Of a stretch of DNA of 64,000 nucleotides, positions 35,961 to 52,708 are shown piece by piece. This DNA comes from Candidatus Shapirobacteria bacterium UBA2283 (GTDB lineage: Bacteria > Patescibacteriota > Microgenomatia > UBA12405): positions 1,433-65,432 of the forward strand of contig DDWP01000020.1 of the NCBI GenBank assembly GCA_002345725.1. Direction: 5' to 3'. Position numbers and translations under genes: made by a program. Under the pieces are notes generated by a model, which was not told where the DNA came from, did not search any database, and saw only the letters and a program-made list of their open reading frames with translations. Position 1 is the first letter of the stretch. Every line of letters starts with the position of its first letter.

Positions 35961-37127
35961 ATGCCATCAACAACAGGAATTAGAGGAACAGGAAATCAAG
36001 GAGTTACCAGAAAGTATGATGTCGCTGACGTTGTTTCGCTTTTGGATGTTAATAGATATCCATTGTTGGCGATTTTAACTAATGCTGGGAAAGATCCCGT
36101 TACTGGTGAGGGTAAGGCGATGAAGAAAAAAGAGTCGATGGACCCAGAATTTAAATGGTTTGAAGATGAATTCGGACGAAGACAGCTTACGGGAACGTCA
36201 ACAATTGACCCTGACGGTGGAAATCTAACGCTTACGAGCCAAGCTCAATACCTCCAGGTTGGAGATATAGTATTGGTCGCGAAGCAAAAGTGGGTTTTCC
36301 AAGTTAGTGCAATTGTCGATGCAAACACTATTTCGGTGGGACCGGAACTTGGAGGTGCGACTGGCGCCGCGGCTGATGCTTCAGGAGATGTTTGGCTTAT
36401 TGGTAACGCCAATGAAGAAGGATCTGGATTGAGAGAAATTAGATCTACAGTCATTCAAGAAATAGCTAACTACTGTCAAATTTTCAGAACTCCAGTTGGT
36501 ATCACTGAATCAGCAAAGAATACTAAGGGATGGACCAAAGAAAGCGATTTTGACTACCAGAGACGGAAAAAAGGAATTGAACACATGGTCGATATTGAAC
36601 GTTCATTTCTCTTCGGTAAAAAAGGAATTATTACTACTGGCTCACATCCAAAACGGTTTACTGGCGGTATCTTAGCTAGAATTGCAACATACGCTTCGGC
36701 GAGTGTTGATACTGAATCTGAATTCGAAGCATGGTTGGAAAGTCTATTTGCTTTTGGAAACACCGAGAAGTATCTTTTTGCGTCCGCATCTGTGGTCTCA
36801 ATGATCAACAGCTGGGCAAAAGGGAAAGTCCAGATAGTTAATCCGACAAAAACATATGGTCTTCGTATCGTAACTTATGATTCTCCGCACGGAACTTTGC
36901 ATATTATCAAGCACCCACTCTTAGCGGGTGTGACTTATGGTAACTATGCGGTCGGATTGGATATGGAAGCGTTGACTTACCGTTACTTAAGTAATCGTGA
37001 TACGAAACTATTAACTAACAGACAGGACCCTGGCGAAGATAGTCAGGTAGATGAGTATTTAACTGAATGTGGTCTGCAAATGGAGCAAGAAAAACGCCAT
37101 GCCATCATGAGCATCGGTGCTCTCTAA
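35961..37127 (+). CDS. putative major capsid protein
   Basis: 388 aa with SD AAGGGGGTGAA; position after the scaffold-like gene; assignment by size and synteny. Confidence 0.45.
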   Translation: MPSTTGIRGTGNQGVTRKYDVADVVSLLDVNRYPLLAILTNAGKDPVTGEGKAMKKKESMDPEFKWFEDEFGRRQLTGTSTIDPDGGNLTLTSQAQYLQVGDIVLVAKQKWVFQVSAIVDANTISVGPELGGATGAAADASGDVWLIGNANEEGSGLREIRSTVIQEIANYCQIFRTPVGITESAKNTKGWTKESDFDYQRRKKGIEHMVDIERSFLFGKKGIITTGSHPKRFTGGILARIATYASASVDTESEFEAWLESLFAFGNTEKYLFASASVVSMINSWAKGKVQIVNPTKTYGLRIVTYDSPHGTLHIIKHPLLAGVTYGNYAVGLDMEALTYRYLSNRDTKLLTNRQDPGEDSQVDEYLTECGLQMEQEKRHAIMSIGAL

Positions 37128-37222
37128 AAATACAGAAACGATATGAAACAGATTAGTAAATTGAAAAAAATGAAGTCACTGCACACTTTGTTACTCAGTG
37201 CAGTCGTTTAAGCCAAGGGTGA

Positions 37223-37855
37223 ATGTTATCACCCTTGCAAACTTTATTAAAGATAGGAGGTGAAAAACAAATGACAGAAATAAACGATAAAACATTAGAA
37301 GAAATGTCCATGGCAGAGCTATGGGGTGAAGCAAAACGCTTAGGAATATCGAAAGAAGGGAAAAAGGAAGACCTGATTGCTCGTATTAGAGAGGCGAAAG
37401 TAGGTGGCGCATCATCAGACAGTAACGATGATCAAGATCAGGAAAGAAAGGTAAGCAAGGAGGTTATCTATATCTCGAGATATCACGAACTTAAATTGGT
37501 CGTTGATCCATCTTACTTGAAAGAGGTTGGTGTCCGAGTGTTGACAATTAAGGGCAAGTGCATTCAGTTCCATGAGGGAATTTACAGAACCTCAGATCCT
37601 GAAGAAATTGCTTTTCTTAATAACCATCCTAATTATGGCAATGTTTTCCGCAAAATCGAACAGGTTGAAATTAAAGGAAAAAATCTTGAGCAAGTTTATA
37701 AGGATAAATTTAAAACGCTTGAAGAAAGAGAGCGGGACATTGCTATTAGAGAAGAATCCATAAAACGCAAAGAGATGGTGTCAAAAGGTCACCAAGAAGG
37801 TGCGTCTTCAGTTACTAGTGGAATTGAAGACACAACCAATCAGCCTAAATTTTAA
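37223..37855 (+). CDS. phage protein with Rho-N/SAP-like motif
   Basis: LEEMSMAELWGEAKRLGISKEGKKEDLIARIREA resembles a Rho_N/SAP motif; likely start MTEINDK (37271) after SD AGGAGGTGAAAAAC. Confidence 0.4.
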   Translation: MLSPLQTLLKIGGEKQMTEINDKTLEEMSMAELWGEAKRLGISKEGKKEDLIARIREAKVGGASSDSNDDQDQERKVSKEVIYISRYHELKLVVDPSYLKEVGVRVLTIKGKCIQFHEGIYRTSDPEEIAFLNNHPNYGNVFRKIEQVEIKGKNLEQVYKDKFKTLEERERDIAIREESIKRKEMVSKGHQEGASSVTSGIEDTTNQPKF

Positions 37856-37868
37856 AAGCTAAAAAAAT

Positions 37869-38159
37869 ATGGAAAGCAGACCTAAATTTACAACGGCCAA
37901 TGTCACATTGACCAACGCCGACACTTGGTATCCCCTGCCAGATATTGCGGTCGGCGAAGGATGTGACGTGGTGATTAAGTCGAAGACTGGGAATACTGGT
38001 GCAATAAAGGTCGCCCATGATGATGCTACCAGCAAAGCATCGCCGTTTTTACTGGATAATCCTGGAGACAGTGTGAGCTTGAGAATTAAGGGAACGACTC
38101 AAATCGTTCTCTCTTCCAGTGTCGTTGGACAAGTTGTGGAGGTTGTTGCTGAACAATAA
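37869..38159 (+). CDS. hypothetical phage structural protein
   Basis: 96 aa ORF within the structural string. Confidence 0.4.
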   Translation: MESRPKFTTANVTLTNADTWYPLPDIAVGEGCDVVIKSKTGNTGAIKVAHDDATSKASPFLLDNPGDSVSLRIKGTTQIVLSSSVVGQVVEVVAEQ

Positions 38160-38161
38160 AT

Positions 38162-38749
38162 ATGGCCAAATTTAAACCATCATTAGTAAATATTCGAAGA
38201 ATGTTCTCGAAGATGAGAATCATCGTCAATACTGATGATGGCGAAGAAGATTACGACACAACCTTCTATCCCAACGGTTTTACCGCTAACCAAATTTCAA
38301 TCGGTAACGACAACACTGGCAGTAATGATGCTGGATTGAGATTCTTAAGACCACTACTGCCTAACAACGTCAAAATAACTAAAGCCATTCTGCGAGTCAA
38401 GTCGGCCGTTAATTCCACTAAGCGCCCCATCTGGGTAATTAAGGGGATTAAGCAAGCCAGTACCTTGAGCTTTGATTCCACTCACCGACCATCACAGCAA
38501 CCTAAAACGACTACCACAGTTGCCTGGGTCCCTGGAGCGGATTGGGTAATTAATAACTGGTATGAAAGTCCAGATATCAAAACGATTATCCAAGAAATCA
38601 TTGACCAAACAGAATTTACCAATAAAGCGATTGGCTTGGTGATTGAAGACAATGCCAGTCCAGCCAATAACTACGAGAACATCTGGGACTTTAACAGTGG
38701 AGCGGCTAACGCTGCTCAGCTTGTATTAACACTTGAACCAGATTTGTAA
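38162..38749 (+). CDS. single-copy paralog of the ~170-aa repeat domain found in 39000..40685
   Basis: DDGEEDYDTTFYPNGFTANQISIGNDNTGSNDAGLRF...PSQQPKTTTTVAW...YESPDIKTIIQEIIDQ parallels both repeats of the next large gene. Confidence 0.55.
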   Translation: MAKFKPSLVNIRRMFSKMRIIVNTDDGEEDYDTTFYPNGFTANQISIGNDNTGSNDAGLRFLRPLLPNNVKITKAILRVKSAVNSTKRPIWVIKGIKQASTLSFDSTHRPSQQPKTTTTVAWVPGADWVINNWYESPDIKTIIQEIIDQTEFTNKAIGLVIEDNASPANNYENIWDFNSGAANAAQLVLTLEPDL

Positions 38750-38764
38750 GGAGGTGAAAAAAAT

Positions 38765-39079
38765 ATGCAAACAAATGATGCTGCGCTATTACAAACGATT
38801 TTAGAAGCCATAGTTGTCAGTCCCGACAAAGTGGCAGTTGAGCGAACAGTCGACGAGATGGGAGTTTTACTTAAAGTCAAAGTCGATGAAAAAGATGCTG
38901 GAGCAGTGATTGGAAAAGAAGGTGCCACTATTGCTGCGATCCGAAAATTGATGGGCGTTTTCGGAAGAAAAAATAACGCTCGAATAAACATCAAGTTAGA
39001 TGTTCCGCCCAGAAAGAAATTACAAAAGTATGAAAAACCAAGTATTGAAGATCAAAACCACGATACAGGAAAACTCTGA
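38765..39079 (+). CDS. KH-domain protein (KhpA/UPF0109-like)
   Basis: GAVIGKEGATIAAIRKLMG (GxxG KH motif); SD AGGAGGTGAAAAAAAT; 3' end overlaps the next ORF. Confidence 0.5.
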   Translation: MQTNDAALLQTILEAIVVSPDKVAVERTVDEMGVLLKVKVDEKDAGAVIGKEGATIAAIRKLMGVFGRKNNARINIKLDVPPRKKLQKYEKPSIEDQNHDTGKL

Positions 39080-40685
39080 TGATGGCCGAGAGGTGGGCGT
39101 TTCGACTTGGTATGCAGATGGTAATGCCGGTAAGGTAATCACCTTCGGCAATTTTGACGGATTAAACCAAGCAGCAGCTCTTCGTTTTCGCGGAGTTAAC
39201 ATCCCCAAATTCGCCAAAGTCTTATTTGCCAGACTTAGACTAAAAGTGGCTTCGACTGATGATGTTGACTTTCCGGTGTTATTAAAAATCAAAGGTATTA
39301 AGGAAGCTGATCCTCAACCATTTAAACAAGTAAGTAGACCGTCAACACGCACTGCGACAATCAATGGTGTCGACTGGGATATTCTCAAAAAATGGAACGC
39401 CAATGAGTGGGTTCAAACTCCAAATTTGAAACTAATCATTGACGAGCTTGTCCAACAAGCTGACTGGAAACCAGGCAACGCTATGGCGTTTGTAATCAGC
39501 GATGACGGCAGCACAACCGGGAATGCTAAAACCTGCTGGGATTCAAGTAAAGGTAAAGGTTACGAAGCGGAGCTGGAAGTTTATTACATTACTCCAGGTA
39601 TCCATGAAGAAATCTCAATCATTAGTTTATCCGGTAACGACCGTGATGGTGAAGAAGATTATGACACCACCTGGTTTTCTAGTGGCTATGCCAGTAATCG
39701 TATAAGCATTGGCAATGACAGTACAGGTAGCTGTGATGCTGGGCTGATATTCAGTCCGGTCAACATTCCTCAAGGCGCTGAAATACTTTCGGCTCGATTA
39801 CTCCTAACGAGCGAAGCCCAATGGAATGCGATGCTGAACCTGCTGATTAAAGGCTTTGCCGAAGACAATGCTCCAGTATTTGCCTCAAATGGCTCAAACC
39901 GCCCCTCTACTCGAACTAAAACAACAACCCAAGCCCAATGGACATTGGGATTTGGTCAGGGTGGAGTTTTGGTGGGTGAACATTGGGCTGCCCAAAGTGT
40001 CTATGAATCGCCAGAGTTAAAAGAAATAATTCAAGAAATTCTTGATCGACCAGATTGGGCAAAAAATAGATTAGGGTTGGTGATTGAGGATTATGACTCC
40101 CAAGCTGGAGCGGTTAAAAACATTTTCGATTCAAATCAAGATGGTGGTAAATATGGAGCAAAACTTGTTATTGCTTGGACTTGTGAGCGACGAGTGACAT
40201 CAAGAGATAAAGACACTAAGGGTTATGACAAAGCAAATTACCCAGAATATATTGTGGTCCACCACTCTGCAACTCCTCGGGATAATACCCACTTTGCCAC
40301 CATAAAAAAATCACATATTGGTTATGGCTGGGATGACATCGGCTATCACAAATGGATTGCAGGAGGACTTGATGGTCTAGGGACTTTGATTCCTGGCCGA
40401 CCAGAAAACAAAATCGGCTCCCATAACGACAGCAACAAAATGAACTACCGTTCCATTGGTATTTGTGTCTGTGGTAGCTTCCACTCGACCGGTGGTAACG
40501 AGCAACCATCAGCCGAGCAGTTGGCCACCTTACAGACACTTCTGGATGATATCCGGATGAAGCGCAGGATTCCCAAAGAACGAGTCATGGGACACGGTGA
40601 GACACCGGAATCGACGACTGATTGCCCTGGTGATCACTTACTGGCTTATATCAAAAATTACCGGAAAACCGGGTCATTAACTTAA
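39000..40685 (+). CDS. N-acetylmuramoyl-L-alanine amidase (Amidase_2/PGRP) with two N-terminal copies of a novel repeat domain
   Basis: C-terminus YIVVHHSATPRD...GYHKWI...IGSHNDSNKMNYRSIGICVCG...TDCPGDH (amidase_2 zinc site); two ~170-aa repeats with S/GIGNDxTGSxDAGL and PSTRTxT motifs. Probable start MKNQVL (39030). Confidence 0.7.
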   Translation: MFRPERNYKSMKNQVLKIKTTIQENSDDGREVGVSTWYADGNAGKVITFGNFDGLNQAAALRFRGVNIPKFAKVLFARLRLKVASTDDVDFPVLLKIKGIKEADPQPFKQVSRPSTRTATINGVDWDILKKWNANEWVQTPNLKLIIDELVQQADWKPGNAMAFVISDDGSTTGNAKTCWDSSKGKGYEAELEVYYITPGIHEEISIISLSGNDRDGEEDYDTTWFSSGYASNRISIGNDSTGSCDAGLIFSPVNIPQGAEILSARLLLTSEAQWNAMLNLLIKGFAEDNAPVFASNGSNRPSTRTKTTTQAQWTLGFGQGGVLVGEHWAAQSVYESPELKEIIQEILDRPDWAKNRLGLVIEDYDSQAGAVKNIFDSNQDGGKYGAKLVIAWTCERRVTSRDKDTKGYDKANYPEYIVVHHSATPRDNTHFATIKKSHIGYGWDDIGYHKWIAGGLDGLGTLIPGRPENKIGSHNDSNKMNYRSIGICVCGSFHSTGGNEQPSAEQLATLQTLLDDIRMKRRIPKERVMGHGETPESTTDCPGDHLLAYIKNYRKTGSLT

Positions 40686-40689
40686 AAAT

Positions 40690-41334
40690 ATGCAATTACA
40701 AGAATTTAGACAAGATCTCGATGCCAGAATGTCGGCCGCTAAAATAAACGGATTCTGGAAGCAGCCGGACAAAGATCGCTGGATTAACAAAGGTATTGTC
40801 CGGGCGTGTAACTATGCCCGTTGGAAATTCTTGAGTAAACATGCCACTCAACTGGTTGAGAAAAACCCTAACGGAACTCTCAAAGAGAATTATTTTCTAC
40901 CGTTTGACTTCAAACCAGGTGGATTCATAACAATCAAAGTTGGTGGAATTCCCCATCATAAAATCAGTGAAGACGAATATACCCAACAGACCTATTCCTA
41001 TGAGCGAGTGGTGGCCATTATTGGTGACGAGTATCACCTTAATTTAAGTGAACTCACGGATGTTGCTGAAGGAGCGATCATCGACATTTATTACAAACGA
41101 CGTCCAGTGAGATTGGTCGAGGATGATGACGAGCCAATTACTCCTGAAGAAATGGATGAACCGGTCGTCAAGTTAGCACTTTCCGTTTGTTTAACCAAAA
41201 CCCCTGGTAAACAATCTGACTCCCAAAAAGAAGTAGTAGAGGCTCATACCATCCTGCAACAAATTAAAGATAGAGAGGATGAGGAACCAACCAGTGTCTA
41301 TAAAGGACAAGCTGGTAGTTCCCGGTGGGAATAA
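40690..41334 (+). CDS. hypothetical phage structural protein
   Basis: 214 aa, co-linear in the structural string. Confidence 0.4.
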   Translation: MQLQEFRQDLDARMSAAKINGFWKQPDKDRWINKGIVRACNYARWKFLSKHATQLVEKNPNGTLKENYFLPFDFKPGGFITIKVGGIPHHKISEDEYTQQTYSYERVVAIIGDEYHLNLSELTDVAEGAIIDIYYKRRPVRLVEDDDEPITPEEMDEPVVKLALSVCLTKTPGKQSDSQKEVVEAHTILQQIKDREDEEPTSVYKGQAGSSRWE

Positions 41335-42800
41335 AAACTATGGCATTAAACGCATATAAAATACAAGGTTTTCGAGGAGGGATCGCCGACGACCCCTATC
41401 AAGGAGTGCGTGAAGCATTCCGATTTGGCTATGGCTTAAATATCCGTGATGACGGCAACACCCTTAAATGCAACCAAGCTCTCAAAGAAGATCTAGGTAG
41501 TTTGGAAGTAATAACGGATTTGATTCTGTTTTATGTCCCGGCATCCAACGGCAAACTCTATGGCTTTGGCGACTCTGGAAATATTTATTGTAAAGACACG
41601 GTCGATGATGCCTGGGCCCTGGTTTATCACGATGCTAATGGAAAAATAACCGGAGCTGCTGAGTACACCAATAATGATGGTTCTGATAACTACATTCCCT
41701 ACCTCTACTGGGCAACAGAAACCAAAGTCAGTCGAATCAAACTCTCTGGCACTTGGACTACTGATGTTGAGCATGACTGGGGTGCCTTAAACGGTGATCC
41801 CGCTTGGCACACGATGGTCGAAGCTCTAGGAGTGCTTCTTATTTGCGATGCTAAAGATCTGGCCATGGTTGATTACGAAGGAGCCTTTGCCGGTGGTATC
41901 TCTCCAGCACTTGATCTGCCTAAAGGACATCGTAATAAATGTTTGCTTGGACAAGATCAGTTGGTGATTTTTGGCTCAACTAAAGGTGACAAAGTCGAAG
42001 AAGGCTGGCTCTGGACTTGGGACAAAATTCAACCCTCTTGGATTCAACGCCGAATGGTGGCAGAACGCGGTATCAACGCCATGATTCAAGGCGAATATCT
42101 TCTAATACAAGCTGGGGTCTATGGTGGGCTCTATTTCTGGGATACCGCCACCTTGATGCGAATCAAAAAGTTCCCCGGAGAAAATGGCTGGGTTAATCCG
42201 GGAGCCGTTTGTAACATGCATGGGCTCCCCTTATTCGGGCTGAATGGCTCAGATAAATGTGGCGTCTATTCATACGGTCGACTGAGTAAAAACGATCCCT
42301 ATGCTCTCAATCTAGAATACGTTCCTTCGCATGGCAAGTTGGCAGATGTCTCGATCGGTGCCTTGACTATGTACACCGACCAATTGTTTGTTTCCTGGAA
42401 AGATGGAGCTACGTTTGGCGTCGATACCATCGATGTAACTAAAAAAGCTGAAGGTCGGTATGAAGGCTTGGTATTTGATGCCAATGAGATCTTTACTCAA
42501 AAAGGTTTTCGTCACATTAAGCTCGTCACTAAATCGCTTCCCAAAGATTCAAGTATCGAAGTGTTTTATAAAGTAAACGAACAAACTGACTGGCAAAAAG
42601 CCACCATGGAAAACGGCAATGAAGCCTTTGATCAGGAAGGTAAAACCAAAGCCATATTTACGATTGAAACCGGTGGAGACGAAGACGAACCAGATCGAGG
42701 TGAGGAATATGAAGTGGCACTCAACATTCACCCCGCTGATAACGAAACACCCGACATCAAATCAATTATTACCTATTTTGAACCGATGGGAATTTTATAA
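41325..42800 (+). CDS. hypothetical phage structural protein (491 aa)
   Basis: Overlaps the upstream gene; no diagnostic motif. Confidence 0.4.
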   Translation: MGIKTMALNAYKIQGFRGGIADDPYQGVREAFRFGYGLNIRDDGNTLKCNQALKEDLGSLEVITDLILFYVPASNGKLYGFGDSGNIYCKDTVDDAWALVYHDANGKITGAAEYTNNDGSDNYIPYLYWATETKVSRIKLSGTWTTDVEHDWGALNGDPAWHTMVEALGVLLICDAKDLAMVDYEGAFAGGISPALDLPKGHRNKCLLGQDQLVIFGSTKGDKVEEGWLWTWDKIQPSWIQRRMVAERGINAMIQGEYLLIQAGVYGGLYFWDTATLMRIKKFPGENGWVNPGAVCNMHGLPLFGLNGSDKCGVYSYGRLSKNDPYALNLEYVPSHGKLADVSIGALTMYTDQLFVSWKDGATFGVDTIDVTKKAEGRYEGLVFDANEIFTQKGFRHIKLVTKSLPKDSSIEVFYKVNEQTDWQKATMENGNEAFDQEGKTKAIFTIETGGDEDEPDRGEEYEVALNIHPADNETPDIKSIITYFEPMGIL

Positions 42801-42802
42801 CT

Positions 42803-44104
42803 ATGTTGACTGATTTAATACAAAAAGTATTTGGAAATAAGGAGGTTACCGATACTCCGTTTCCAGTCGTGCCAACTCACACTCATAACAGCATTGACTC
42901 ACCAGCCCTAGCTCCTGGATCTGTTAGTACAGTCAATATTAAACCTAATGCAGTTGATGAAAGTAAGCTCATGGATTTATCGGTAACTGAGGAAAAGTTG
43001 GCTGAAGCAGCTGTCGCCACCCAAAAAATAAAAGATGATGCGATTACTGCCGCCAAAGTCTGGAAAGGAGGGTCAGTAATTACCCTCTCTGCCCAAATTG
43101 CAGAAGCGATTATCTTAACGGCACATATTCAAGACTTAGCGGTGAAATGGGCCAAGATTGGAAATCTTGAGGTTGGCAATAGCAAAATTATGGATGCAGC
43201 AATAAGCAATGCCAAGATTCAGGACTTATCAGTCACCAATGGCAAAATCGGACTTTTGGAAGTTGGTAACTCTCGAATAATGAATGCTGCCATCAGTACC
43301 GCAAAAATACAAGAATTGGCCGTTGAGTGGGCTCAGATTGCAACGCTCGCAGTTGGCAACTCAAAAATTATGGATGCCGCTATTAGTACGGCCAAGATTC
43401 AAAACTTAGCTGTCACTGATGCTGAAGTAAATGATTTGAATGCAGCCAAAATATCGGCAGGACTGATGACCGCTGACAGGATTTGGGGTGGTGCTGGGTA
43501 TTTTGATTACATCCAAGTTCGTGAATGTGGTACTCAAGCGGTTAATGTTGCTGGAAATATTAATAAAACAGGAACCTGCAACTTTGCTATCCCTCACCCA
43601 CTGAAACCTGGCAAGCAGTTAGTTTATACCGGAATTGAATCGGCCGAGGTAATGCTCGTCGAGCGCGGGAGTAGCCAACTCCAAAACGGTCAAAAACGAA
43701 TTGATTTCTCTGATCACTACAAAGCAGTCAGTGATCCCAGAAAAGCGACAGCCTATCTCACCCCTCGAGAAGATTGCAAAGGATTACTACTCCTAGAAAC
43801 CGCTGAAGACCACATCACTGTTAAAGAAATGAGTAATGGTAGATCAAACGCCAAATTTGATTACATTATTTTTACGGTCCGTAAAGGTTTCTATGGATTT
43901 GATTTTGAACCAGAGGATCTCTCACTTCTCCAAAATGACGGTGAAGATGAAGAATCGTTCAAACAACGCTATCACGATCACCGGATCAAATTAATTCGTA
44001 AAAAAGGCGGTCCAGATATTGATACCAAAGTCGCTGAATTTCACCAAGCGTGGATCTCAACTCAAGGAAATAAAAAAGTTAATCAAAAGGAGGTGAACAC
44101 ATAA
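42803..44104 (+). CDS. tail-fibre-like protein with 22-aa tandem repeats
   Basis: Four consecutive ~22-aa units AKIQ(D/E/N)LAVxWAxIxxLEVGNSKIMDAAIS(N/T); 66-bp DNA periodicity. Confidence 0.5.
   Translation: MLTDLIQKVFGNKEVTDTPFPVVPTHTHNSIDSPALAPGSVSTVNIKPNAVDESKLMDLSVTEEKLAEAAVATQKIKDDAITAAKVWKGGSVITLSAQIAEAIILTAHIQDLAVKWAKIGNLEVGNSKIMDAAISNAKIQDLSVTNGKIGLLEVGNSRIMNAAISTAKIQELAVEWAQIATLAVGNSKIMDAAISTAKIQNLAVTDAEVNDLNAAKISAGLMTADRIWGGAGYFDYIQVRECGTQAVNVAGNINKTGTCNFAIPHPLKPGKQLVYTGIESAEVMLVERGSSQLQNGQKRIDFSDHYKAVSDPRKATAYLTPREDCKGLLLLETAEDHITVKEMSNGRSNAKFDYIIFTVRKGFYGFDFEPEDLSLLQNDGEDEESFKQRYHDHRIKLIRKKGGPDIDTKVAEFHQAWISTQGNKKVNQKEVNT
43125..43450. repeat. ~66-bp tandem coding repeats (about 4 units) inside the tail-fibre-like gene
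   Basis: Repeated GCCAAGATTCA(G/A)GA(C/A)TTA...GTTGGCAA(T/C)(AGC/TCA)AAAATTATGGATGC(A/C)GC units. Confidence 0.6.
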
Positions 44105-45168
44105 TGGCAACAAAACAATTAGGCGGTTGGTATTGGCAACCAGAACAAAATAAAGCTCTCCGGTGGTGGGGTACTGACTCTGCTGGAAAAGATATTTATA
44201 CCGAAGGCGACGAACCAAGTAAGCCCCAAACTGTATCCAATTTAAGCACGGGGTTAAGTACAATCGGATCCGGAAACGTTTTGGGCTTTGACATGGGAAC
44301 TCTCAACACTAAATTTCAAGATACCTATGGCCAGATTCAAGGGCTATCGACCGAACTAGAAGACTACTCAACCCGTCGATATGATGAGGAATACAGCAAG
44401 GCAGGCTTGAGTAAAACTAAAGATGAAATTGCAGCATTAGACGCTAGTATCGCCAGTGAGAAAAATGTCCGAGATGAATCAGTAAGCAAGGTTAGGAAAA
44501 ATCCTGGCTACTCAGCTGCAACCATTACGGGCGAAACTGGAGAGGTCCAAAAACTGGCTGGCTCTAAAATTGGTAATTTAATTGAAGAGCGAAACGCCAA
44601 AGCCCAAACCTACAATGCGACACTGGGTGAAATCACCCAAAAAGTAGCGACGGAAACTCAAGGTAAACAAAGTAAGCTCAACAACTTGCGTTCTGATTTG
44701 CAGCTTATAAGCGGACTGGTTGATTCCTACAACAAAACCAGATCGACCGAGCTTTCGAGTCAAACCGATGAAACACATTGGGAAAAAGAGTTTGAACTCA
44801 AACTCTATGGTGCCCAAACCGATCGAATGAAAACTGGTGATGGTGGTGGCACGTACGCTAAACAACAGGTTAAGGATGCCTTTGGTAATGTGACTGGTTT
44901 TTTTGATCCAGTATCAGGCCAAACAACACCTTATCAAACTGATTCTCAAAAACAACAAACCACGACCGTAAACGAAGGCGAACTGCGAAATGAAATTCGA
45001 TCAGCCTGGAAAACTGGGCTATCAGCCGATCAACTAAAAACGAATCTGGCCAACGTCACGACCGATAAAGGCAAAAACGCCTCACAGGTCATTGATGAAG
45101 AATGGCAGTTAAAAACACAACCGGGAGTTATGGGCTTTCTAAGAAGGCTCTTTACTCCGGGGGTTTAA
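44104..45168 (+). CDS. hypothetical phage structural protein (354 aa)
   Basis: SD AAGGAGGTGAACACATA; Ser/Thr/Gln-rich with a coiled-coil-like region. Confidence 0.4.
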   Translation: MATKQLGGWYWQPEQNKALRWWGTDSAGKDIYTEGDEPSKPQTVSNLSTGLSTIGSGNVLGFDMGTLNTKFQDTYGQIQGLSTELEDYSTRRYDEEYSKAGLSKTKDEIAALDASIASEKNVRDESVSKVRKNPGYSAATITGETGEVQKLAGSKIGNLIEERNAKAQTYNATLGEITQKVATETQGKQSKLNNLRSDLQLISGLVDSYNKTRSTELSSQTDETHWEKEFELKLYGAQTDRMKTGDGGGTYAKQQVKDAFGNVTGFFDPVSGQTTPYQTDSQKQQTTTVNEGELRNEIRSAWKTGLSADQLKTNLANVTTDKGKNASQVIDEEWQLKTQPGVMGFLRRLFTPGV

Positions 45169-45172
45169 ATTT

Positions 45173-48100
45173 ATGGACAACTTTTTAGAACAACTAAAGA
45201 AAAACATTACCTCGTCGTTTGCCAATACCAAACAGTCAGTGGGTGATATTTTTGGTAAGGCTCAAACAAGTCTGACTAGTCTGGTGCGTGGTGGTCAACA
45301 AAAAGTTGATGAGGTTATTAAACCACTGCAATACGATATCGCAATCTCTGGCCCAACAAGTGGAAGCTACAAACCGTTCAAGAATTTATATTTGGAGACG
45401 GCAGCCCAAGCGTTAGGAGTTGGAGCTCGGGACACTGATGTTTTGGAGAGATTGCCCAGTGCAACTTTTGGTGCACTTAAGGGTGCTGGCAATGGATTAG
45501 GTGAAGCGTTGTCGTTTGGTTGGTGGAAACCAGAAATAAAGTATGCCGATGATATAGAAAAACAAGCTGGTGACATGACTGAGATTGAGTTCAACGTCTT
45601 GGGAACCATTGGAACGTTTTTGGTTGGTGGCGAATTGGTCCAAGGAGCTTTGCGCGGTGTGCCCCTTCTGGCACGGGTAGCAACTGTCGCTCCTAGAACT
45701 TTCAATGTGTTATCTACTGGGCTGACGTTTGCTGGACTCACTCAAATTCAAAAAGATGAAGCGCAAAAGAATGCATTACAGCGAGCAAAAGATTTTATGG
45801 GTGATTTTGCTCTCGGTGGAGCCTTCTCAATTGCCGGAATGAAAACATCATTTCTGAAGTCATCAGCCATTATCGGTCCAGCAACTTATGTCACCTCACT
45901 TCTAAAAGGAGAGTCAAACGGTGATGCGCTTAAAGATACAGCAGCCATGATGGGGCTCCACTCCCTTAATTTCGCGGTGGCTAAGTTTCTACCTAATGGA
46001 TCAGAAATAGAAAATCGAATAGAAAAAGCGGCCAGTGAGCAGCTCAAAATAACAAAGGCTGAAGCCATGGAGTATCTGGGCATTAGTGACAAAGCTACTG
46101 CTCAGGAGATGAAACAAGCCTGGAAGAATAAGGTGGTTGATATTACTAAGCGCTTCCCAGCTCAGGCCAATCAAACACCACAAGAAATGGGAGTATTTAA
46201 TCAAGCTTGGAATACTGCCAACAGAGCCTATGAGTTTTTAGCTAAAGTCAGTAACCCAGAGGGTTATACAGGGAAATCATTCGCTCAAGAGTTTCAAGAT
46301 CTATATTACCAACTCTGGAGAGATGTTCCCGATAAGCGTTCTGCGATTGTCAAAGCCGTCCGTAGTTTACCTGCGGGACTGTCAGTTCGGGCTACTCTTA
46401 ATGATGGCCAGCGTAATGAAATTGTTTCGGCGCTTGGTGGTGAAGGGGCACAAACGAGACTGGGGAAAGTGGCGGAACTGACTGATGCAGATTTGGTGTC
46501 AGTGGCCATGGAAAACAAAATAAAAGTGACTCCTTCAAAACCCGCAGTCACTGAAGAGTTGGATATAAGCACTGAAACATATAAGCATGGCACACCTGTG
46601 CCAGATAAAATTTTGAAGGAAGGTTTTAGTTTAGTAAAAACAGGTGAAACGAGCGGTTATGGAGGTGTTATGGGTAGAGGTATTTACCTTGATCTCACTC
46701 CCGAAGGCGAAGGGGCAAAACTGTACGGTACAGTTGTTGATGCAAAGATTAAAAAGGGGCTGAATTTATTCGAGTGGTCAGGAAAACTTGATGAATTGTA
46801 CACAGAAGCTACAAAGTATGGAGATCCAGAAACAATAACCGATGTTTTACTTAAGAAGGGATATGACGGAGTAAAGGGATTGAATCAAATGGTGATTTTT
46901 GACCCAAAAAATGTCGTACCAGTTGTAGACGGAAAACCTACTGTCACCTCAAAAATATCTTTGTCACCACAAGAACAAAAAGCTGTCAAAGCGGCCGAGA
47001 TCCGAGATAAATATATAACACCAGAAGAAAAAGAATTGGCAGATGCGGAAAAGATTCCTAGTATCGGGGACATTCTCCAGTCATCAAGCTTTCAGGACAG
47101 ATTACAAGGAAAAGTAATTGCGCCGACCACCCCGAGAGCTGATCAATTGAGAGAACCACCTTCCGGTAAACCGCCTCGTTCACCTCAGGAGATCTCCTTA
47201 AACGACGCCCCACCTTCACCTGAAGGCAGTGCCTTGGATGAGATCGATAAAATGGTTGGCAAGATCTCAACCGCAAAGTCGATTCTGGGAAATGTAAAGG
47301 ATGCAATTCAATCTTTCCCACGAATGTTTACTGACCGCTTTGCTCCCATTAAACAATTTGAGGATCAAATTACCAAACTTCAAGGACAGCCAATTGATAT
47401 TGATTCCAGTCCATATGTGGCAGCCAGAATGTATGCTGGTCGCTTTGGAATTGTTGAGGGAAGCTTCAAAGATTTATATAACATCATACAGCCGGTTCGA
47501 AAGCTTCGAGCTGACTTTACTCGATTTGTTTTGTCCGAACGCGCTATTGAACGAGGAGAGCGAGGGTTTGATAACCCAAATGGAGTTACAAAGGAAACTG
47601 CAGAGCAAGCACTCGTCGAGCTAAAAGATAAAGTAGGTGACAAGGCCTTCAAAGCCTTCGAGCAGGTCGGCCAGGGAATTCAAAATTGGTCCATTAAATC
47701 AATTCTCCAGCCGATGAAAGATGCCGGAATCCTGGGTAAAGAAGCTTTTACTTCAATTATTGAGAACAATAAAAAATGGATGCCATTCCATGTTTTGGAA
47801 TATATGCCCTCAATTGAGCAAGCCGATCACATGGCGGTAGGAAGCGAAACGTTTTCAGTAAGTAAACAAGGCATCGTTAAATCTCTAGAAGGAACTGAGA
47901 AAATCATCCGTGATCCATTTATGTCGATCGTGGATAACCTGACAAAGTCGGTAAGTCTGATAGAACGTAATAAAGTAGCCCAGAAACTCATTGAACTGAG
48001 AAATAGCCATCCAGATACAGCTAAAGAGTTTATAAAGTTTTTACCGGATGGTCTGCGACCACCACCAGAATGGGAAGCGATTAGTGTCTTTATTGATGGC

Positions 48101-49798
48101 AAAGTAACCAAGTGGGCGGTTCCCAAAGATCTCTCAGAAGCCATGCATGCCCTGTCACCGGCTGAAACCGGTTTAATGGGTAAAATGATCCTAGCTTCTT
48201 CGAAAGTCTTCAAAGCCGGAACCACCTCACTCTATTTCCCTTTTACTCTTTCAAACGCCATTCGGGATTACCAAACTGCCACAATCGTTTCCAAATGGGG
48301 TTTCAATCCGGCCAACTGGCTGTCGGGATTTAAGGATGGTCTAAAAGCTGCCTTTAAGTTTGACTCCAAAGCCTACGACGAATTTATGACTAACAAAGGT
48401 GGTTATGGTGGTTACATCGAATCAGCCAAGGGGCTAGCTGTTGCCTCTGAACAACTTTTCACCCCTGAGTGGATGAATCGAGCAAAAATTGTCGTCAATC
48501 CATTTCAACTGATTAGTACCTTCTCGGAAGCGATCGAGCTGGCTCCACGACTCGGAGTTTATAAAAAAGGAATCGCTCAGGGTGCAACCCAACTAGAAGC
48601 TGCCTATGAAGCTCGGAATGTGACGGTAGATTTTGCTAAAGCCGGAATTGAGGGTCGACTCATCAATATGTGGATTCCTTTCGTGAATGCCCGTTGGCAA
48701 GGGCTTCTCACCATCGGCCGAGTAATGAAAGAGAATCCAATCAGAACGACGGCTCGTGCTTTGGCATTGACGGTCCTACCTGGTGTGGCTACTTACTTTT
48801 ATAACGTCATGACCCATGAAGATCTTTGGGACGATATTCCTCAATGGGCTAAAGATACTTATTTTATTATGATCGTAGGTGAAGGCCAGGATAGTCAGGG
48901 CAATCGGGTACCAAAAGTGGTTCAGATTCCCAAGGGCGATATGGGAACGATTTTCTTCAACCCGTTAATGTATGCGTTGGAGTATGTCCGAAAACAAGAG
49001 CCAACCAACCTCTTCAAACTAGGTCTGGAGTGGATGAGCCAATTATCGCCGGTTGCGTTTACCAGAGATGGAGAATTGTCGGCTCAGTCCTTCCTTGGTA
49101 GCGCCCTGCCTCCAGCATTAAAGGTGCCGTTGGAACTAGCGACAAACACTAATCTTTTCACCGGATTCCCAATTGTCCCACAACGTCTCGAGAAAGTGGC
49201 TCCAACGGAACAATATGACGAAAAAACGCCACAAGTCGCCGTTACGGTTGGACGAGCTTTGGGCATCAGCCCGATGAAGCTGACCCATGCTATTTCCGGA
49301 CTTGCCGGAAGCTTCTCTCGCCAAGTGATGAACCCGGCCGATATCATCAACCTCACCACTCAGCGCTTCTATCGGCTTCAGGGTGGGCAAAAACAACAAG
49401 CTGCCTGGGATATTAAGTACGATGCCGAAGTCGGTTATAACACCACACGGCTACAGATGAAACGATTGATCGAGCAAGGCAAGCTGCAGGAAGCTCAACA
49501 GATGGCCCTCAAATGGAACCAGGAGGCAGGAAAGCTCATTCCCGAGGTTGTACCACTCTTAATGAAAGATGACCCCAAGGAAGCGGCGTTATTCCAAAGT
49601 AGCATCACCTTTGATGCTGCAGATTTACAGCGACTCTTAAAAACAACTCTCCCTGGTGGAGTTCCGGAAAATACTGGAACTGATCAAACACTAATCCCGC
49701 TTCAACCTGGACTTAATACTAATTCGACCATGGGACAACTATTCCAGGGTGGTCAACAAAATAGTGGTGACACTATAAGGAGGTTAATTTACAAATGA
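45173..49798 (+). CDS. giant (1541 aa) virion/ejection-type polyvalent protein with embedded ADP-ribosyltransferase-like domain
   Basis: Hydrophobic Gly/Ala-rich N-terminal segments; internal KHGTPVP...GYGGVMGRGIYLDL...GLNQMVIFDPKNV resembles the H-Y-[EDQ] ART motif triad. Confidence 0.45.
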   Translation: MDNFLEQLKKNITSSFANTKQSVGDIFGKAQTSLTSLVRGGQQKVDEVIKPLQYDIAISGPTSGSYKPFKNLYLETAAQALGVGARDTDVLERLPSATFGALKGAGNGLGEALSFGWWKPEIKYADDIEKQAGDMTEIEFNVLGTIGTFLVGGELVQGALRGVPLLARVATVAPRTFNVLSTGLTFAGLTQIQKDEAQKNALQRAKDFMGDFALGGAFSIAGMKTSFLKSSAIIGPATYVTSLLKGESNGDALKDTAAMMGLHSLNFAVAKFLPNGSEIENRIEKAASEQLKITKAEAMEYLGISDKATAQEMKQAWKNKVVDITKRFPAQANQTPQEMGVFNQAWNTANRAYEFLAKVSNPEGYTGKSFAQEFQDLYYQLWRDVPDKRSAIVKAVRSLPAGLSVRATLNDGQRNEIVSALGGEGAQTRLGKVAELTDADLVSVAMENKIKVTPSKPAVTEELDISTETYKHGTPVPDKILKEGFSLVKTGETSGYGGVMGRGIYLDLTPEGEGAKLYGTVVDAKIKKGLNLFEWSGKLDELYTEATKYGDPETITDVLLKKGYDGVKGLNQMVIFDPKNVVPVVDGKPTVTSKISLSPQEQKAVKAAEIRDKYITPEEKELADAEKIPSIGDILQSSSFQDRLQGKVIAPTTPRADQLREPPSGKPPRSPQEISLNDAPPSPEGSALDEIDKMVGKISTAKSILGNVKDAIQSFPRMFTDRFAPIKQFEDQITKLQGQPIDIDSSPYVAARMYAGRFGIVEGSFKDLYNIIQPVRKLRADFTRFVLSERAIERGERGFDNPNGVTKETAEQALVELKDKVGDKAFKAFEQVGQGIQNWSIKSILQPMKDAGILGKEAFTSIIENNKKWMPFHVLEYMPSIEQADHMAVGSETFSVSKQGIVKSLEGTEKIIRDPFMSIVDNLTKSVSLIERNKVAQKLIELRNSHPDTAKEFIKFLPDGLRPPPEWEAISVFIDGKVTKWAVPKDLSEAMHALSPAETGLMGKMILASSKVFKAGTTSLYFPFTLSNAIRDYQTATIVSKWGFNPANWLSGFKDGLKAAFKFDSKAYDEFMTNKGGYGGYIESAKGLAVASEQLFTPEWMNRAKIVVNPFQLISTFSEAIELAPRLGVYKKGIAQGATQLEAAYEARNVTVDFAKAGIEGRLINMWIPFVNARWQGLLTIGRVMKENPIRTTARALALTVLPGVATYFYNVMTHEDLWDDIPQWAKDTYFIMIVGEGQDSQGNRVPKVVQIPKGDMGTIFFNPLMYALEYVRKQEPTNLFKLGLEWMSQLSPVAFTRDGELSAQSFLGSALPPALKVPLELATNTNLFTGFPIVPQRLEKVAPTEQYDEKTPQVAVTVGRALGISPMKLTHAISGLAGSFSRQVMNPADIINLTTQRFYRLQGGQKQQAAWDIKYDAEVGYNTTRLQMKRLIEQGKLQEAQQMALKWNQEAGKLIPEVVPLLMKDDPKEAALFQSSITFDAADLQRLLKTTLPGGVPENTGTDQTLIPLQPGLNTNSTMGQLFQGGQQNSGDTIRRLIYK

Positions 49799-50898
49799 AA
49801 CAACTAACACTGCCCGTAACTTTTAGTCAAAACGACAGTCGATGGAAAACTAGTCCTTTAGGAACCAGAGGCACGATTGGCTCATATGGTTGCTTGGAGA
49901 ACGATGCAACTATGGTAGCCAATTATTATGGCTTTCAAGAGACTCCACTTACCTTAAACGAGAAACTGACCAACAATGCCGGATATCAGGATGGCAATAA
50001 ATTCGTCTGGAGTGTATTTGCTCGATTATTTGGTCTGAAGTATTCTGGTCAATGGTCCAATGCGGGAGCACTAACTCAAACCCAGATGGATCAAATCAGA
50101 AAAGCCATTGATAATGGATATCCCGTTTTTCTACAGATCGACACAATTCCTTTAACATCTGCCCTTGATGAACACTGGATCCTAGCAATTGGCTATGAGG
50201 GTGACGACTTTCTGGTTCAGGATCCTTGGGATGGAGCGACTAAACGAATCACCAGCTGGGGTGTCACTCCTCAAAAACTGATCTATGCCTGGTGTTGGTT
50301 TGAAGGGAAACCAGCTCAGGTCGATGTGGCCGTAGGATGTCTGGTCCCAAATACTCCGGAGTGGCGTACCAAGTATGAGCAAATTGTGGCTTTAGCTACC
50401 AAGTGGGCTGATACCCTTAAGGTTTTGGAGATTACCGACGACCCTAACACTACCCCTACCGACAAAATTAAGAGCATCCTGGCAGGGTATAAAAGTCGTG
50501 AAACTGACCTATCTAACAAGCTAAATGATAAACAGGGCTTGCTCGACAATGCCAATAAGGAGATTGAGAACAGAACCGAACAGGTAAGCAGACTCGAGGG
50601 TGATCTGCTAGAGAAGGATAAATACTATAAATCCCTAGTTGACGCACTAAATAAGCAGGTCAAAAACGGCTCAGATGCCCTACCCTTGGCTCAGGCTAGA
50701 GTTGGGGTGCTTGAGGGGGAACTGGATGAAGCCAATAAAGCCAAGGGCCGTGCCTTGTTGGATGCCCAGCAAAACAAAAGCCAGCTGGAAGCCTGTCAAA
50801 AGGGAATCATTACGCCCACTCCTCAACTAATTATGAAGATGACCATTCAATACATTACAAATTTAGTAACCAAAAAAGGAGGTGAGAATAATGGATAA
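49795..50898 (+). CDS. peptidase C39-like (papain-fold) cell-wall hydrolase, putative endolysin
   Basis: FSQNDSRW...GSYGCLENDATMVANYYG (Cys motif), DEHWILAIGYEGDDFLVQDPWDG (His/Asp); followed by holin genes; C-terminal coiled-coil. Confidence 0.5.
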   Translation: MKQLTLPVTFSQNDSRWKTSPLGTRGTIGSYGCLENDATMVANYYGFQETPLTLNEKLTNNAGYQDGNKFVWSVFARLFGLKYSGQWSNAGALTQTQMDQIRKAIDNGYPVFLQIDTIPLTSALDEHWILAIGYEGDDFLVQDPWDGATKRITSWGVTPQKLIYAWCWFEGKPAQVDVAVGCLVPNTPEWRTKYEQIVALATKWADTLKVLEITDDPNTTPTDKIKSILAGYKSRETDLSNKLNDKQGLLDNANKEIENRTEQVSRLEGDLLEKDKYYKSLVDALNKQVKNGSDALPLAQARVGVLEGELDEANKAKGRALLDAQQNKSQLEACQKGIITPTPQLIMKMTIQYITNLVTKKGGENNG

Positions 50899-51154
50899 CA
50901 TATATCCCGAATGGAAGAAAGTCGCTTGGAGGTTTCTCCGAGTGTTTATATCAGCCTTTTTATTCACCGGATCGATGGTGTTGATAAACGCCCAGCCAGT
51001 AGCACTGAGTAGTTGGGACAAATTTCTCAATACTCTGATATTGCCATTTTTATTGGCAGGTGGGGTGGCTGGCTTAAATGCAGTAGGAAAACTTTTGAGA
51101 GATTTGTTTGGCACTGAGGATCAAACAGGCCTCGTCGACAAATTACCATTCTAA
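50882..51154 (+). CDS. holin (two TM helices)
   Basis: TM1 FLRVFISAFLFTGSMVLI, TM2 FLNTLILPFLLAGGVAGLNAV; SD AAAGGAGGTGAGAATA; overlaps the endolysin gene end. Confidence 0.6.
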   Translation: MRIMDNIYPEWKKVAWRFLRVFISAFLFTGSMVLINAQPVALSSWDKFLNTLILPFLLAGGVAGLNAVGKLLRDLFGTEDQTGLVDKLPF

Positions 51155-51159
51155 GCACT

Positions 51160-51411
51160 ATGAATAACAATAGCCAATCCACTGACACAAATATGAGAGA
51201 AAGAATTGCCAAGCTCGAGGAACGAGTGGACGGTGGATTGGGTTATATCAATAAAGAGCTGGTGGAAATTAAAGAGAACCATCTCTATCACCTACAAGCC
51301 GATGTAACGGATTTGAAAATGAAGGTTAATACTCTAGCGGTGAAAGTAAGTGTGGGAGTAGCAATTGCGACAATTCTAATCGATTTAGTTTTTCGCTTCC
51401 TACTGAAGTAG
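51160..51411 (+). CDS. XhlA-like lysis-associated protein
   Basis: N-terminal coiled-coil RIAKLEERVDG plus C-terminal TM VSVGVAIATILIDLVF. Confidence 0.45.
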   Translation: MNNNSQSTDTNMRERIAKLEERVDGGLGYINKELVEIKENHLYHLQADVTDLKMKVNTLAVKVSVGVAIATILIDLVFRFLLK

Positions 51412-51412
51412 T

Positions 51413-51715
51413 TTATTGGCCTTTTTTCTCTTTCTTGGTATCTGGCTCAAGTAAATTGTGGAGATCCTTAGTGAAGCCATCAAAGGCATTGGCATTTAAA
51501 ACGGTGAAATAGGTGGATCCAGGAACACCAGTAAAGACTAAAGTATCACCAGGCTGAATGTTCTGGGCTTTTCTTAGTTTGGCAGGTATAACGAGCTGAC
51601 CGCGTGAACTTACCGGCGACGTACCGAATACAACGGTCTTAGCTGACTTTTTATCTTTTGGCTTACTTTTATCGTTCATATTTGAAATCAACTTGCTTTG
51701 AGACAGGTAAAGCAA
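51413..51715 (-). CDS. AbrB/MazE/SpoVT-type DNA-binding domain protein
   Basis: SSRGQLVIPAKLRKAQNIQPGDTLVF swapped-hairpin motif; probable start MNDKSKP. Confidence 0.55.
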   Translation of the reverse strand: MLYLSQSKLISNMNDKSKPKDKKSAKTVVFGTSPVSSRGQLVIPAKLRKAQNIQPGDTLVFTGVPGSTYFTVLNANAFDGFTKDLHNLLEPDTKKEKKGQ

Positions 51716-52015
51716 TTCCCTATAATTAAGAATATTCTTTAATTACAGTAGTCGTATTATACAATAAATCAGTGTCGAGAAGCACGAAGACTGGAAAATG
51801 ACAGAAAGATACAGTAACAACCTTGTACAGACAGGGGTTAAGAAGTAGAATATACACAGGGTCGACGGTATGTAATGAAAGAATCGATACCCATTCGTTC
51901 TTTAAGCACATTAAGTTTGAGTTCCAAATCAGGAGTGATTAAGGAACGGAGGTTCGAGCTGAGTACCGTCCCCAGCTCACTTATGAGAAGCGACTTATTC
52001 TTTGTGAATTTCTAA

Positions 52016-52453
52016 GTGGTAGAAAATGTGTTAATTAAAGTAATGAAAAATGAGTCTAGTGTCAGTTCTGGAGGAGTGGTAATAAATAGTCTTGGCCAGA
52101 TCCTGGTTGTTAAACAACTGGGTGATACGTGGTCTTTACCCAAAGGACATGTGAACGAGGATGAAGACATTTTGGTGGCTGCTCAGAGAGAGGTATCTGA
52201 AGAGTCAGGTGTTTCTGACTTGGAGTTGGTTAAGGGTTTGGGTTTTTACTATAGACCAAGAATTGATAAGCCGGAAGAAATAAAAAAGATCTATATGTTT
52301 TTGTTTATAACCTATTGCAGTGAGTTGTTGCCTAAAGATGATGACAACAAAGAAGCAGTGTGGTTGAATATGGCTGAGGCTGTGGATAGGTTGTCAGCAA
52401 AAAAAGATAAAGAGTTTTTGATGAAGGTGGCTAGAGAGAACAATTTAGGTTAA
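52016..52453 (+). CDS. NUDIX hydrolase
   Basis: Nudix box [23 protein letters not shown]. Confidence 0.8.
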
Positions 52454-52467
52454 AATAAGAGGAAATT

Positions 52468-52682: not shown

Positions 52683-52708
52683 ACATTGTATTGAAATATT
52701 AATAATTT

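Follow-up and report, generated by a model that had tools for sequence, protein, structure and literature searches.

A very probable ART-PolyVal-type ADP-ribosyltransferase domain in a polyvalent-type phage protein from an apparent prophage of a probable Shapirobacteria-group host

Among the protein-modifying modules predicted in phage polyvalent proteins, ADP-ribosyltransferase (ART) domains are the most frequent. The ART domain found in the polyvalent proteins of phages and conjugative elements has been described as ART-PolyVal (PF18760; Iyer, Burroughs, Anand, de Souza & Aravind 2017, PMC5512222). Such a domain is considered here in a protein of 1541 amino acids (aa) encoded on a stretch of 64,000 nucleotides from the assembly of Candidatus Shapirobacteria bacterium UBA2283 (GCA_002345725.1, contig DDWP01000020.1, positions 1,433 to 65,432), hereafter referred to as the window. 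The segment aa 472-581 of this protein very probably adopts the ART fold and belongs to the ART-PolyVal family, of which it represents a divergent branch, already covered by the family description and known from metagenomes only. It resembles ART-PolyVal domains in its size (about 125-140 aa), in the motifs YHGT, GxGxY, YG, GYDG and [EQ]xVxFDP and in its setting, since the family occurs next to LPD domains (here LPD38) in giant phage proteins made of several domains, as well as alone or fused to MuF. It differs from them in that the window sequence lies below Pfam detection, in that its putative third active-site residue is a Gln whereas the described triad is H-Y-D, and in that its sub-branch has been encountered in metagenomes only.

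Several other ART systems can be compared with the window domain. The PARP family (PF00644), including tankyrase-1/2 and the mono-ARTs PARP10/12/14/15, provides the best matches among solved structures; the His, the Tyr and the stacking Tyr are aligned, and the catalytic strand follows the same pattern, N-[EQ]-x-[VI]-[IV]-[FY]-D. However, PARP domains measure about 200 aa against about 110 aa for the window domain, which has no helical regulatory domain and from which poly-ADP-ribose synthesis is not expected because Gln replaces Glu. Diphtheria toxin and Pseudomonas exotoxin A share the H-Y-E clade and the fold, exotoxin A being among the fold matches, but they display no detectable sequence similarity to the window domain, which has no diphthamide-targeting features and carries a Gln at the Glu position. 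In phage T4, the ART Alt is synthesized late, packed into the head and brought into the cell along with the DNA, after which it modifies host RNA polymerase and other proteins (PMC5512222, PMC9503650). Alt can serve as a functional model for the window protein, whose packaging is suggested by gene order and precedent. Unlike the window ART, which is an H-Y-E-clade domain of a giant podovirus protein, Alt belongs to the R-S-E (Alt/VIP2) clade and is a separate myovirus protein. With regard to MuF-fused toxins and effectors, one relative of the window domain (P0007) joins this ART to MuF, and a MuF-like fusion is among the best fold matches in BFVD; in contrast, the window protein has no MuF, and packaging would presumably fall to its C-terminal region, which contains LPD38.

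The open reading frame (ORF) and the parts of the protein are arranged in the window as follows.

45173..49798, + strand: ORF of the multidomain (polyvalent-type) protein, 1541 aa, from the ORF list of the window; exact protein on five metagenome contigs, full-length orthologs of 72% identity in IMG/VR
45173..46585, + strand: N-terminal region, aa 1-471, with moderately hydrophobic Gly/Ala-rich segments at aa ~140-275
46586..46915, + strand: very probable ART domain, aa 472-581 (ART-PolyVal/PARP-like, H-Y-Q), bounded by BLAST against 30 relatives
46916..47272, + strand: Pro/Ser/Lys-rich linker, aa 582-700 (~120 residues), by composition
47105..49795, + strand: conserved C-terminal module, aa ~645-1541, mostly alpha-helical, with LPD38 and phrog_9854
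48821-49357, + strand: Pfam LPD38, aa 1217-1395 (hmmscan, 1.1e-22)

Family and fold of the domain

When the window sequence was searched singly, LPD38 was the sole Pfam match of the whole 1541-aa protein (hmmscan), nothing being found at the ART segment. Neither the protein nor the domain had a match in NCBIfam, the isolated ART segment had no meaningful match among PDB sequences, and PADLOC gave no relevant match for the domain or the whole protein. PHROGs matched the 1541-aa protein with function-unknown families only, at aa ~700-1370, and 24 kb of the window compared with phages by megablast gave no match. A word-indexed search of 5.8 billion proteins with the domain recovered one homolog, P0001 (152 aa). 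An exhaustive phmmer search of 1.84 billion representative proteins, with aa 459-593 as the query, gave 33 matches at E<=1e-3, including 15 at E<=1e-10, the best at 6e-24. P0002, P0015 and P0025 were dropped as repeat proteins in which a piece of 30-45 residues matched many times, and the 30 remaining relatives were aligned with the window sequence (alignment A1, 31 members). In domain numbering, the columns conserved in at least 90% of A1 are H14, G15, G26, F27, G45, G61, G105, D107, G108 and F118, and the consensus reads YHGT...I.K.GF...G.G.YL...A.LYG...GYDGI...E.VIFDP.NV. The H-G-T and G-x-G-I-Y residues picked out by an earlier, sequence-only reading of this DNA are thus not there by chance, as these columns include them, together with a GYDG motif that it did not mention.

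Individual scans of the 31 domain sequences gave a PF18760 match for 23 of them (best 2.8e-10), and in the ten members inspected all of these matches but one cover approximately positions 4-137 of the 140 in the model. The PF18760 gathering score of 31.2 bits is passed by P0033 alone (41.5 bits); the other relatives score 15.8-29.7 bits, and neither the window protein nor its isolated domain matches PF18760, even at E<=10. Searched as a profile, A1 reaches proteins already annotated as PF18760 (E 7.5e-11 to 9e-4), which carry all of the motifs YHGT, GxGxY, YG, GYDG and EVVxFDP, so that homology to bona fide PF18760 members extends, via the relatives, over the whole domain. The PARP catalytic domain (PF00644) is matched by 15 of the 31 domain sequences, mainly over the N-terminal half of the model (approximately positions 35-136 of 199), and P0019 just attains its threshold (26.7 bits). 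A full-length PF00644 match with an H-Y-E triad is not what the window domain displays, as it has no PF00644 match and a Gln in place of the Glu. Against PDB sequences, the A1 profile matched tankyrase-2 and tankyrase-1 (8e-6 to 3e-5) as well as PARP15 and PARP10/12 (5e-4 to 7e-3), and PARP1 only at E 0.15. Because the window sequence falls under every curated family threshold, its assignment to the ARTs is transitive, through these relatives.

The fold leads to the same family. An AlphaFold2 model of the domain built with A1 has a mean confidence (predicted local distance difference test, pLDDT) of 91.8 and a predicted template-modelling score (pTM) of 0.86. Its elements follow the order beta1 (with the His), helix, beta2 (with the Tyr), beta3, beta4, two inserted helices, beta(GVKG), beta(QMVI) and a last strand; as modelled, this is the split beta-sheet ART fold of the H-Y-[EDQ] clade. 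In a Foldseek comparison with PDB, nearly all significant matches are ARTs of the H-Y-E clade, with template-modelling scores (TM, on the query) of 0.46-0.58. The top matches are tankyrase-1/2, PARP10/12/14/15 and exotoxin A (probability 0.98-1.00; exotoxin A itself 0.98-0.99), and tankyrase-2 4TJU was matched at E 2e-3, probability 1.00 and TM 0.56. In BFVD, the best matches have E 3.5e-6 to 1e-3, those annotated as ART-PolyVal being at about 8e-6; they include an ART-PolyVal-like domain-containing protein of Salmonella phage Mutine, a PolyVal ADP-ribosyltransferase, a MuF-like fusion from Microbacterium phage Schubert, the iridovirus PARP-like protein 100L, a 127-aa PARP catalytic domain-containing protein and several phage proteins of 1300-1500 aa. 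The sequence-only reading had placed an ART-like domain of the H-Y-[EDQ] (diphtheria-toxin/PARP) type at 46570-46920 of the 1541-aa protein. This placement holds, as its coordinates bracket the homology bounds 46586-46915, and the type is borne out by the PF18760 and PARP matches of the relatives, by the profile matches in PDB and by the pLDDT-91.8 model. That reading had also proposed a structure prediction or profile search as the means by which a confident non-ART fold might come to light; the outcome was the opposite, with almost only H-Y-E-clade ARTs. Its further terms, a virion protein and the modification of host defence components, are inferences drawn from gene order and from what has been published on polyvalent proteins.

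Regarding cyanophages, the ART model also loosely matches chain B of PDB 9k3a, from the pre-ejectosome of cyanophage A4 (E 3e-3, root-mean-square deviation 7.5 A, 190 columns). This match was rejected as proof of an ART in a solved ejectosome, as it is loose and the A4 paper describes no ART-like domain. A closer match to the ART model is BFVD A5HL40, gp26 (1495 aa) of the podophage Phormidium phage Pf-WMP3 (E 1e-3, TM 0.58). There may be an ART-like domain, so far unrecognised, in cyanopodophage ejection proteins.

Active-site residues and selection

The stretches KHGTP, GRGIYL and NQMVIFD start at aa 471 (nucleotide 46583), aa 501 (46673) and aa 571 (46883), respectively, and the motifs assigned to aa 472-581 are, in order, KHGT, GRGIY, KLYG, GYDG and NQMVIFDP. 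The residues expected to form the active site, or to lie close to it, are the following.

46586..46594, + strand: H472-G473-T474, the NAD-binding/catalytic His motif on strand 1; H and G conserved in at least 90% of members
46673..46687, + strand: G501-R-G-I-Y505, with the triad Tyr, on strand 2; aligned to tankyrase GAGIYF and PARP1 GKGIY(896)
46724..46726, + strand: Y518 (KLYG), the second, nicotinamide-stacking Tyr; aligned to PARP1 Y907
46859..46870, + strand: G563-Y-D565-G566, a near-invariant strand before the catalytic strand; G105, D107 and G108 conserved in at least 90% of members
46883..46906, + strand: N571-Q572-M-V-I-F-D-P578, the catalytic strand, with Q572 (codon CAA) at the putative catalytic Glu position

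In the profile comparison, HG[ST] falls on the catalytic His and GxGIY on the catalytic Tyr of the PDB proteins, and the H472 motif aligns with HGS of tankyrase-2. An hhalign comparison with the PARP1 catalytic fragment pairs H472 with H862, Y505 with Y896 and Y518 with Y907. Of the 30 family members that span the Y505 column, 25 have a Tyr there; the Y518 column holds a Tyr or a Phe in 28 of 31, and GYDG is also present in the PF18760-annotated proteins. H472, Y505 and Y518 are thus intact, and the same residues hold NAD+ in PARPs. The Q572 column is more variable, with 22 Glu, 7 Gln, 1 Met and 1 Thr among the 31 members; the Gln-type members are the window sequence, P0001, P0003, P0004, P0007, P0010 and P0011. 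A forced global hhalign alignment puts Q572 on PARP1 E988 with low confidence, and its place at the start of the penultimate strand of the AlphaFold2 model suits the ART topology. The N-Q-x-V-I-F-D strand that had been proposed as the third motif therefore lines up with N-E-Y-I-V-Y-D of PARP1, with the low confidence of that forced alignment, and agrees with the strand order of the model. The model has H472 on strand 1 and Y505 on strand 2; Q572 is the candidate counterpart of the PARP Glu, and the near-invariant D565 lies one strand earlier.

Many active mono-PARPs lack the catalytic Glu. As for PARP1, its E988Q variant is in routine use as a mono-ADP-ribosyltransferase (PMC5552275). Because PARP1 E988Q is a mono-transferase and because Gln recurs in seven related sequences in which the other motifs are intact, the window domain is predicted from its sequence to be a mono-, and not a poly-, ADP-ribosyltransferase.

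The identical 1541-aa protein occurs on five metagenome contigs, including three of 51.0, 53.6 and 8.0 kb. A full-length ortholog of 1521 aa, 72% identical, is encoded on two IMG/VR contigs (L012 and L013) and keeps every ART motif, including the Gln. Identity to this ortholog is highest in the ART domain (82.7%) and lowest in the linker (52%), with 64-81% in the N-terminal region and 67-77% in the C-terminal module. Since synonymous sites are saturated (proportion of synonymous differences, pS, ~0.78), the nonsynonymous distance (dN) was used alone, without a dN/dS ratio; it amounts to 0.11 for the ART, 0.18 for the whole protein and 0.39 for the linker. Strong purifying selection acts on the ART domain, which is no passenger in decay.

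Mobility of the domain, carrier protein and gene neighbourhood

Comparison of the full 1541-aa protein with the 30 relatives by BLAST revealed similarity restricted to aa 415-674, mostly to aa 472-581. It follows that the domain is a discrete mobile cassette. The relatives are either free-standing proteins of 130-220 aa or parts of proteins of 630-2722 aa, in which the partner domains include MuF, LPD14, an intein, Mrr and a nucleotidyltransferase. The window domain is found in a polyvalent context, with an LPD domain in the same polypeptide and with relatives that include solo and MuF-fused versions. Among individual relatives, P0007 (633 aa) combines this ART, a weak match to an R-S-E-type ART and a C-terminal MuF (Phage_Mu_F) head domain, and P0009 (985 aa) combines the same ART with a CCA-adding/poly(A) polymerase head, an RNA-binding domain, HD and DUF192. 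P0001 (152 aa, Gln-type), which at ~50% identity is nearest to the window domain, is encoded by a gene of its own at 10001-10459 of locus L001 (NCBI GCA_044240345.1, JAZHCG011466348.1), among small ORFs on a phage-like contig of 72.9 kb, which also encodes glycosyltransferases and the DNA-hypermodification enzymes aGPT-Pplase3/ADDT.

Within the window protein, the ART is flanked by a short Pro/Ser-rich stretch and by the Pro/Ser/Lys-rich linker of about 120 residues, as judged from composition. The N-terminal region (aa 1-471) has no notable Pfam, PHROG or NCBIfam match, its approximately 470 aa are similar to none of the fetched homologs, and no convincing transmembrane segment was found in them, the hydropathy maximum of 1.39 being under the transmembrane threshold. 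It is conserved solely in the two full-length orthologs, at 64-81% identity. The C-terminal module matches phrog_9854 at 6e-63, and aa ~645-1541 are 32-76% identical to 22 LPD38 proteins, one of which is a distant member at 23%. Complete-looking LPD38 relatives measure about 910-1225 aa, and none of them has the ART or the N-terminal 586 residues of the window protein. Since the ART is missing from its LPD38 relatives, it belongs to an N-terminal part that is variable and specific to the lineage. By tblastn, the C-terminal module has weaker matches in large proteins encoded by Bacillus Pagevirus, Pelagibacter and Vibrio phages; the homolog in phage Page closes the structural block, right before the holin and endolysin genes. 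The AlphaFold2 model of the module is helical (pLDDT 71.6). Its identification as a known ejection protein found no support, as comparison of the model with PDB gave noise, namely helical transporters with probability <=0.12.

The gene for the 1541-aa protein comes last in its block, after the upstream structural and tail genes (35961..45168, + strand) and an SU10-type portal, which precedes the capsid gene. The surrounding genes are listed below.

35961-37127, + strand: SU10-type major capsid protein (Pfam)
39000-40685, + strand: 561-aa protein with C-terminal Amidase_2 (N-acetylmuramoyl-L-alanine amidase), between capsid and adaptor
40690-41334, + strand: SU10-type adaptor (Pfam)
41325-42800, 42803-44104 and 44104-45168, + strand: three tail or ejection-module ORFs
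49795..50898, + strand: 367-aa protein with an N-terminal Peptidase_C39_2-like cysteine peptidase (Pfam, 8.3e-11) and a long coiled-coil tail

The 561-aa Amidase_2 protein is probably a virion-associated peptidoglycan hydrolase and has the same position in a Parcubacteria prophage. The start of the peptidase gene overlaps the stop of the 1541-aa gene, and the two genes also adjoin on independent contigs; the Peptidase_C39_2-like protein could be a lysin or a processing protease. In the related Parcubacteria prophage, this slot is held by a small ORF and an Amidase_2 lysin. This orthologous prophage (L007; JGI 3300037810 Ga0376277_0000438, a 223-kb contig, locus 80-16031) has the same order of capsid, amidase, adaptor and tail genes, and its carrier ortholog is an LPD38 protein of 1159 aa without an ART. 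After the carrier come the Amidase_2 lysin, a tyrosine integrase and then the host genes NUDIX, SecDF and PheS. Another SU10-like phage (L003) shows this gene order too, and its large terminal protein, P0010 (1382 aa), has the same Gln-type ART and an unrelated remainder. In three independent phage lineages, the gene thus closes the tail/ejection block. In SU10, gp20-24, which are encoded in such a block, are ejection proteins according to mass spectrometry (PMC9509320). Delivery of the window carrier from the virion can be considered reasonably likely.

The window has the appearance of a prophage flanked by host sequence. Its left part (1-3408) holds a TGT-like ORF, tRNA-Pro/Leu/Gly (1555-1859) and a large serine recombinase (1792-3408); its right part (52468-64000) holds an array of six tRNAs (52468-53160), a transglutaminase-like gene, PPDK (59617-61887) and tRNA-Glu. 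No att-like direct repeats of at least 14 bp were found between positions 1-6000 and 50001-58000 of the window. PPDK is 71-82% identical to that of Candidatus Shapirobacteria, Microgenomates and Patescibacteria metagenome-assembled genomes, and therefore the host is probably a bacterium of the candidate phyla radiation (CPR), from the Microgenomates/Shapirobacteria group. The carrier ortholog in the Parcubacteria prophage was also counted toward a CPR host. Between the terminase and portal genes lies a defence island (19061-29070, - strand) with a Gabija-like pair, made up of a GajB-type UvrD helicase (19061-21001) and a GajA-type AAA_15/OLD-TOPRIM protein (20983-23244; PADLOC E 3e-50 and 8e-63 for the pair), and a complete Type I restriction-modification system, with HsdR (23261-26308), HsdS (26298-27482) and HsdM (27487-29070).

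Proposed activity and its alternatives

Taken as a whole, the explanation preferred here is that of an NAD+-dependent ART packaged with its carrier and modifying a host molecule, which we hold with moderate confidence. The carrier would be made late, together with the tail genes, and, as an internal or ejection protein, would be packed inside the head of the podovirus via its conserved LPD38-containing C-terminal module, before entering the cell with the phage DNA. Held on flexible linkers, the ART would then modify a host macromolecule early in infection, using NAD+ to attach single ADP-ribose units to its target. This target would be a protein that serves the host in transcription, translation or defence, or perhaps a nucleic acid. 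Catalytic activity of the domain is itself somewhat probable.

Several observations weigh against this explanation. The isolated ART segment had zero Pfam matches even at E<=10, and a tblastn search for the domain in 50,697 deposited phage genomes returned nothing. The profile comparison with PDB sequences linked the C-terminal module to no solved ejection protein. Free-standing homologs such as P0001 lie amid small non-structural genes, and from the setting of P0001 it follows that packaging is not needed by the domain. The equivalence of Q572 to PARP1 E988 is of low confidence, since it is proposed from the strand topology of the model and a low-probability forced alignment, and D565 is an alternative candidate for the third residue, because the prototype ART of polyvalent proteins was described as H-Y-D with the D in strand 5 (Iyer et al. 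2017, PMC5512222). If Q572 does stand for the canonical Glu, the activity of the domain could be weak or of another kind. In toxins of the H-Y-E clade, the change from Glu to Gln strongly lowers activity. The domain might accordingly have been attenuated by Q572, to act as an NAD+ glycohydrolase or as a binder or sponge of NAD+ or of ADP-ribose-derived immune signals. The Gln is shared by a group of relatives and by the ortholog, and has therefore been selected rather than being a sign of decay, and NAD+-centred immune signalling is a major battleground between phages and hosts (PMC9503650). However, all NAD-contacting motifs are exactly as in the Glu-type relatives, and PARP1 E988Q, like the many active mono-PARPs that do without the Glu, still transfers ADP-ribose; attenuation of this kind is distinctly unlikely.

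Other alternatives concern the target, the delivery and the ART nature of the segment. It can be hypothesized that the ART acts on nucleic acid, either on RNA/DNA ends or bases of the host or on the co-packaged phage genome. PARP10 and PARP15, which are among the closest solved folds, ADP-ribosylate phosphorylated nucleic-acid ends; the P0009 fusion represents an RNA-end-processing context, one relative matches the Tpt1/KptA RNA 2'-phosphotransferase model (3e-4), and the carrier, if an internal head protein, would be packed against DNA. On the other hand, neither Pfam nor PHROGs detected a nucleic-acid-binding domain in the window protein, the alignment has no specific DarT- or Tpt1-type motifs, and most relatives are in polyvalent or MuF contexts, for which the published prediction is of protein targets (PMC5512222). 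A nucleic-acid target is thus unlikely, if worth bearing in mind. With regard to delivery, a real ART might be borne by a carrier that does not travel in the virion, whether it acts late in the producing cell or rides as a passenger on a structural tail protein. The C-terminal module resembles no solved ejection protein, and proteins closely orthologous to the carrier work without an ART. Opposed to this are the place of the gene at the end of the tail/ejection block in the three lineages, the MuF fusion of P0007, which points to the head interior, and the strongest purifying selection in the protein falling on the ART, which argues against a passenger. Moreover, LPD38 and ART domains typify the proteins for which packaging and injection have been predicted (PMC5512222), and failure of the carrier to be delivered appears quite improbable. 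As for the motif resemblance being coincidental and the segment not an ART, this could be entertained as long as the single sequence was without match in Pfam, NCBIfam and PDB sequence searches, but profile, fold and family evidence converge on ART and effectively refute it.

Going beyond the preferred explanation of a packaged mono-transferase, the H-Y-Q branch might form a functionally separate class of ARTs delivered from the virion, either with an acceptor other than protein, such as host tRNA or RNA ends or DNA, or with a dedicated counter-defence role in phages of CPR/Patescibacteria. In this class reading, the cassette would have been captured specifically by the phage lineage, because close carrier orthologs lack it; we regard such a class as doubtful at best.

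This finding leaves the established view of ARTs and of polyvalent proteins as it was, and no biochemical study of any ART-PolyVal enzyme was found in the literature searched. The ART domain of the window protein is small, confidently modelled, strongly conserved and clearly bounded, and could be expressed alone. The dichotomy between Glu and Gln at the catalytic position is natural and occurs among close relatives, and carriers with and without the cassette make a clean comparison possible. To our knowledge, no injected effector has been characterised for phages of CPR/Patescibacteria. With a probable CPR (Shapirobacteria-like) host, the domain bears on the manipulation of ultra-small bacteria by their phages.

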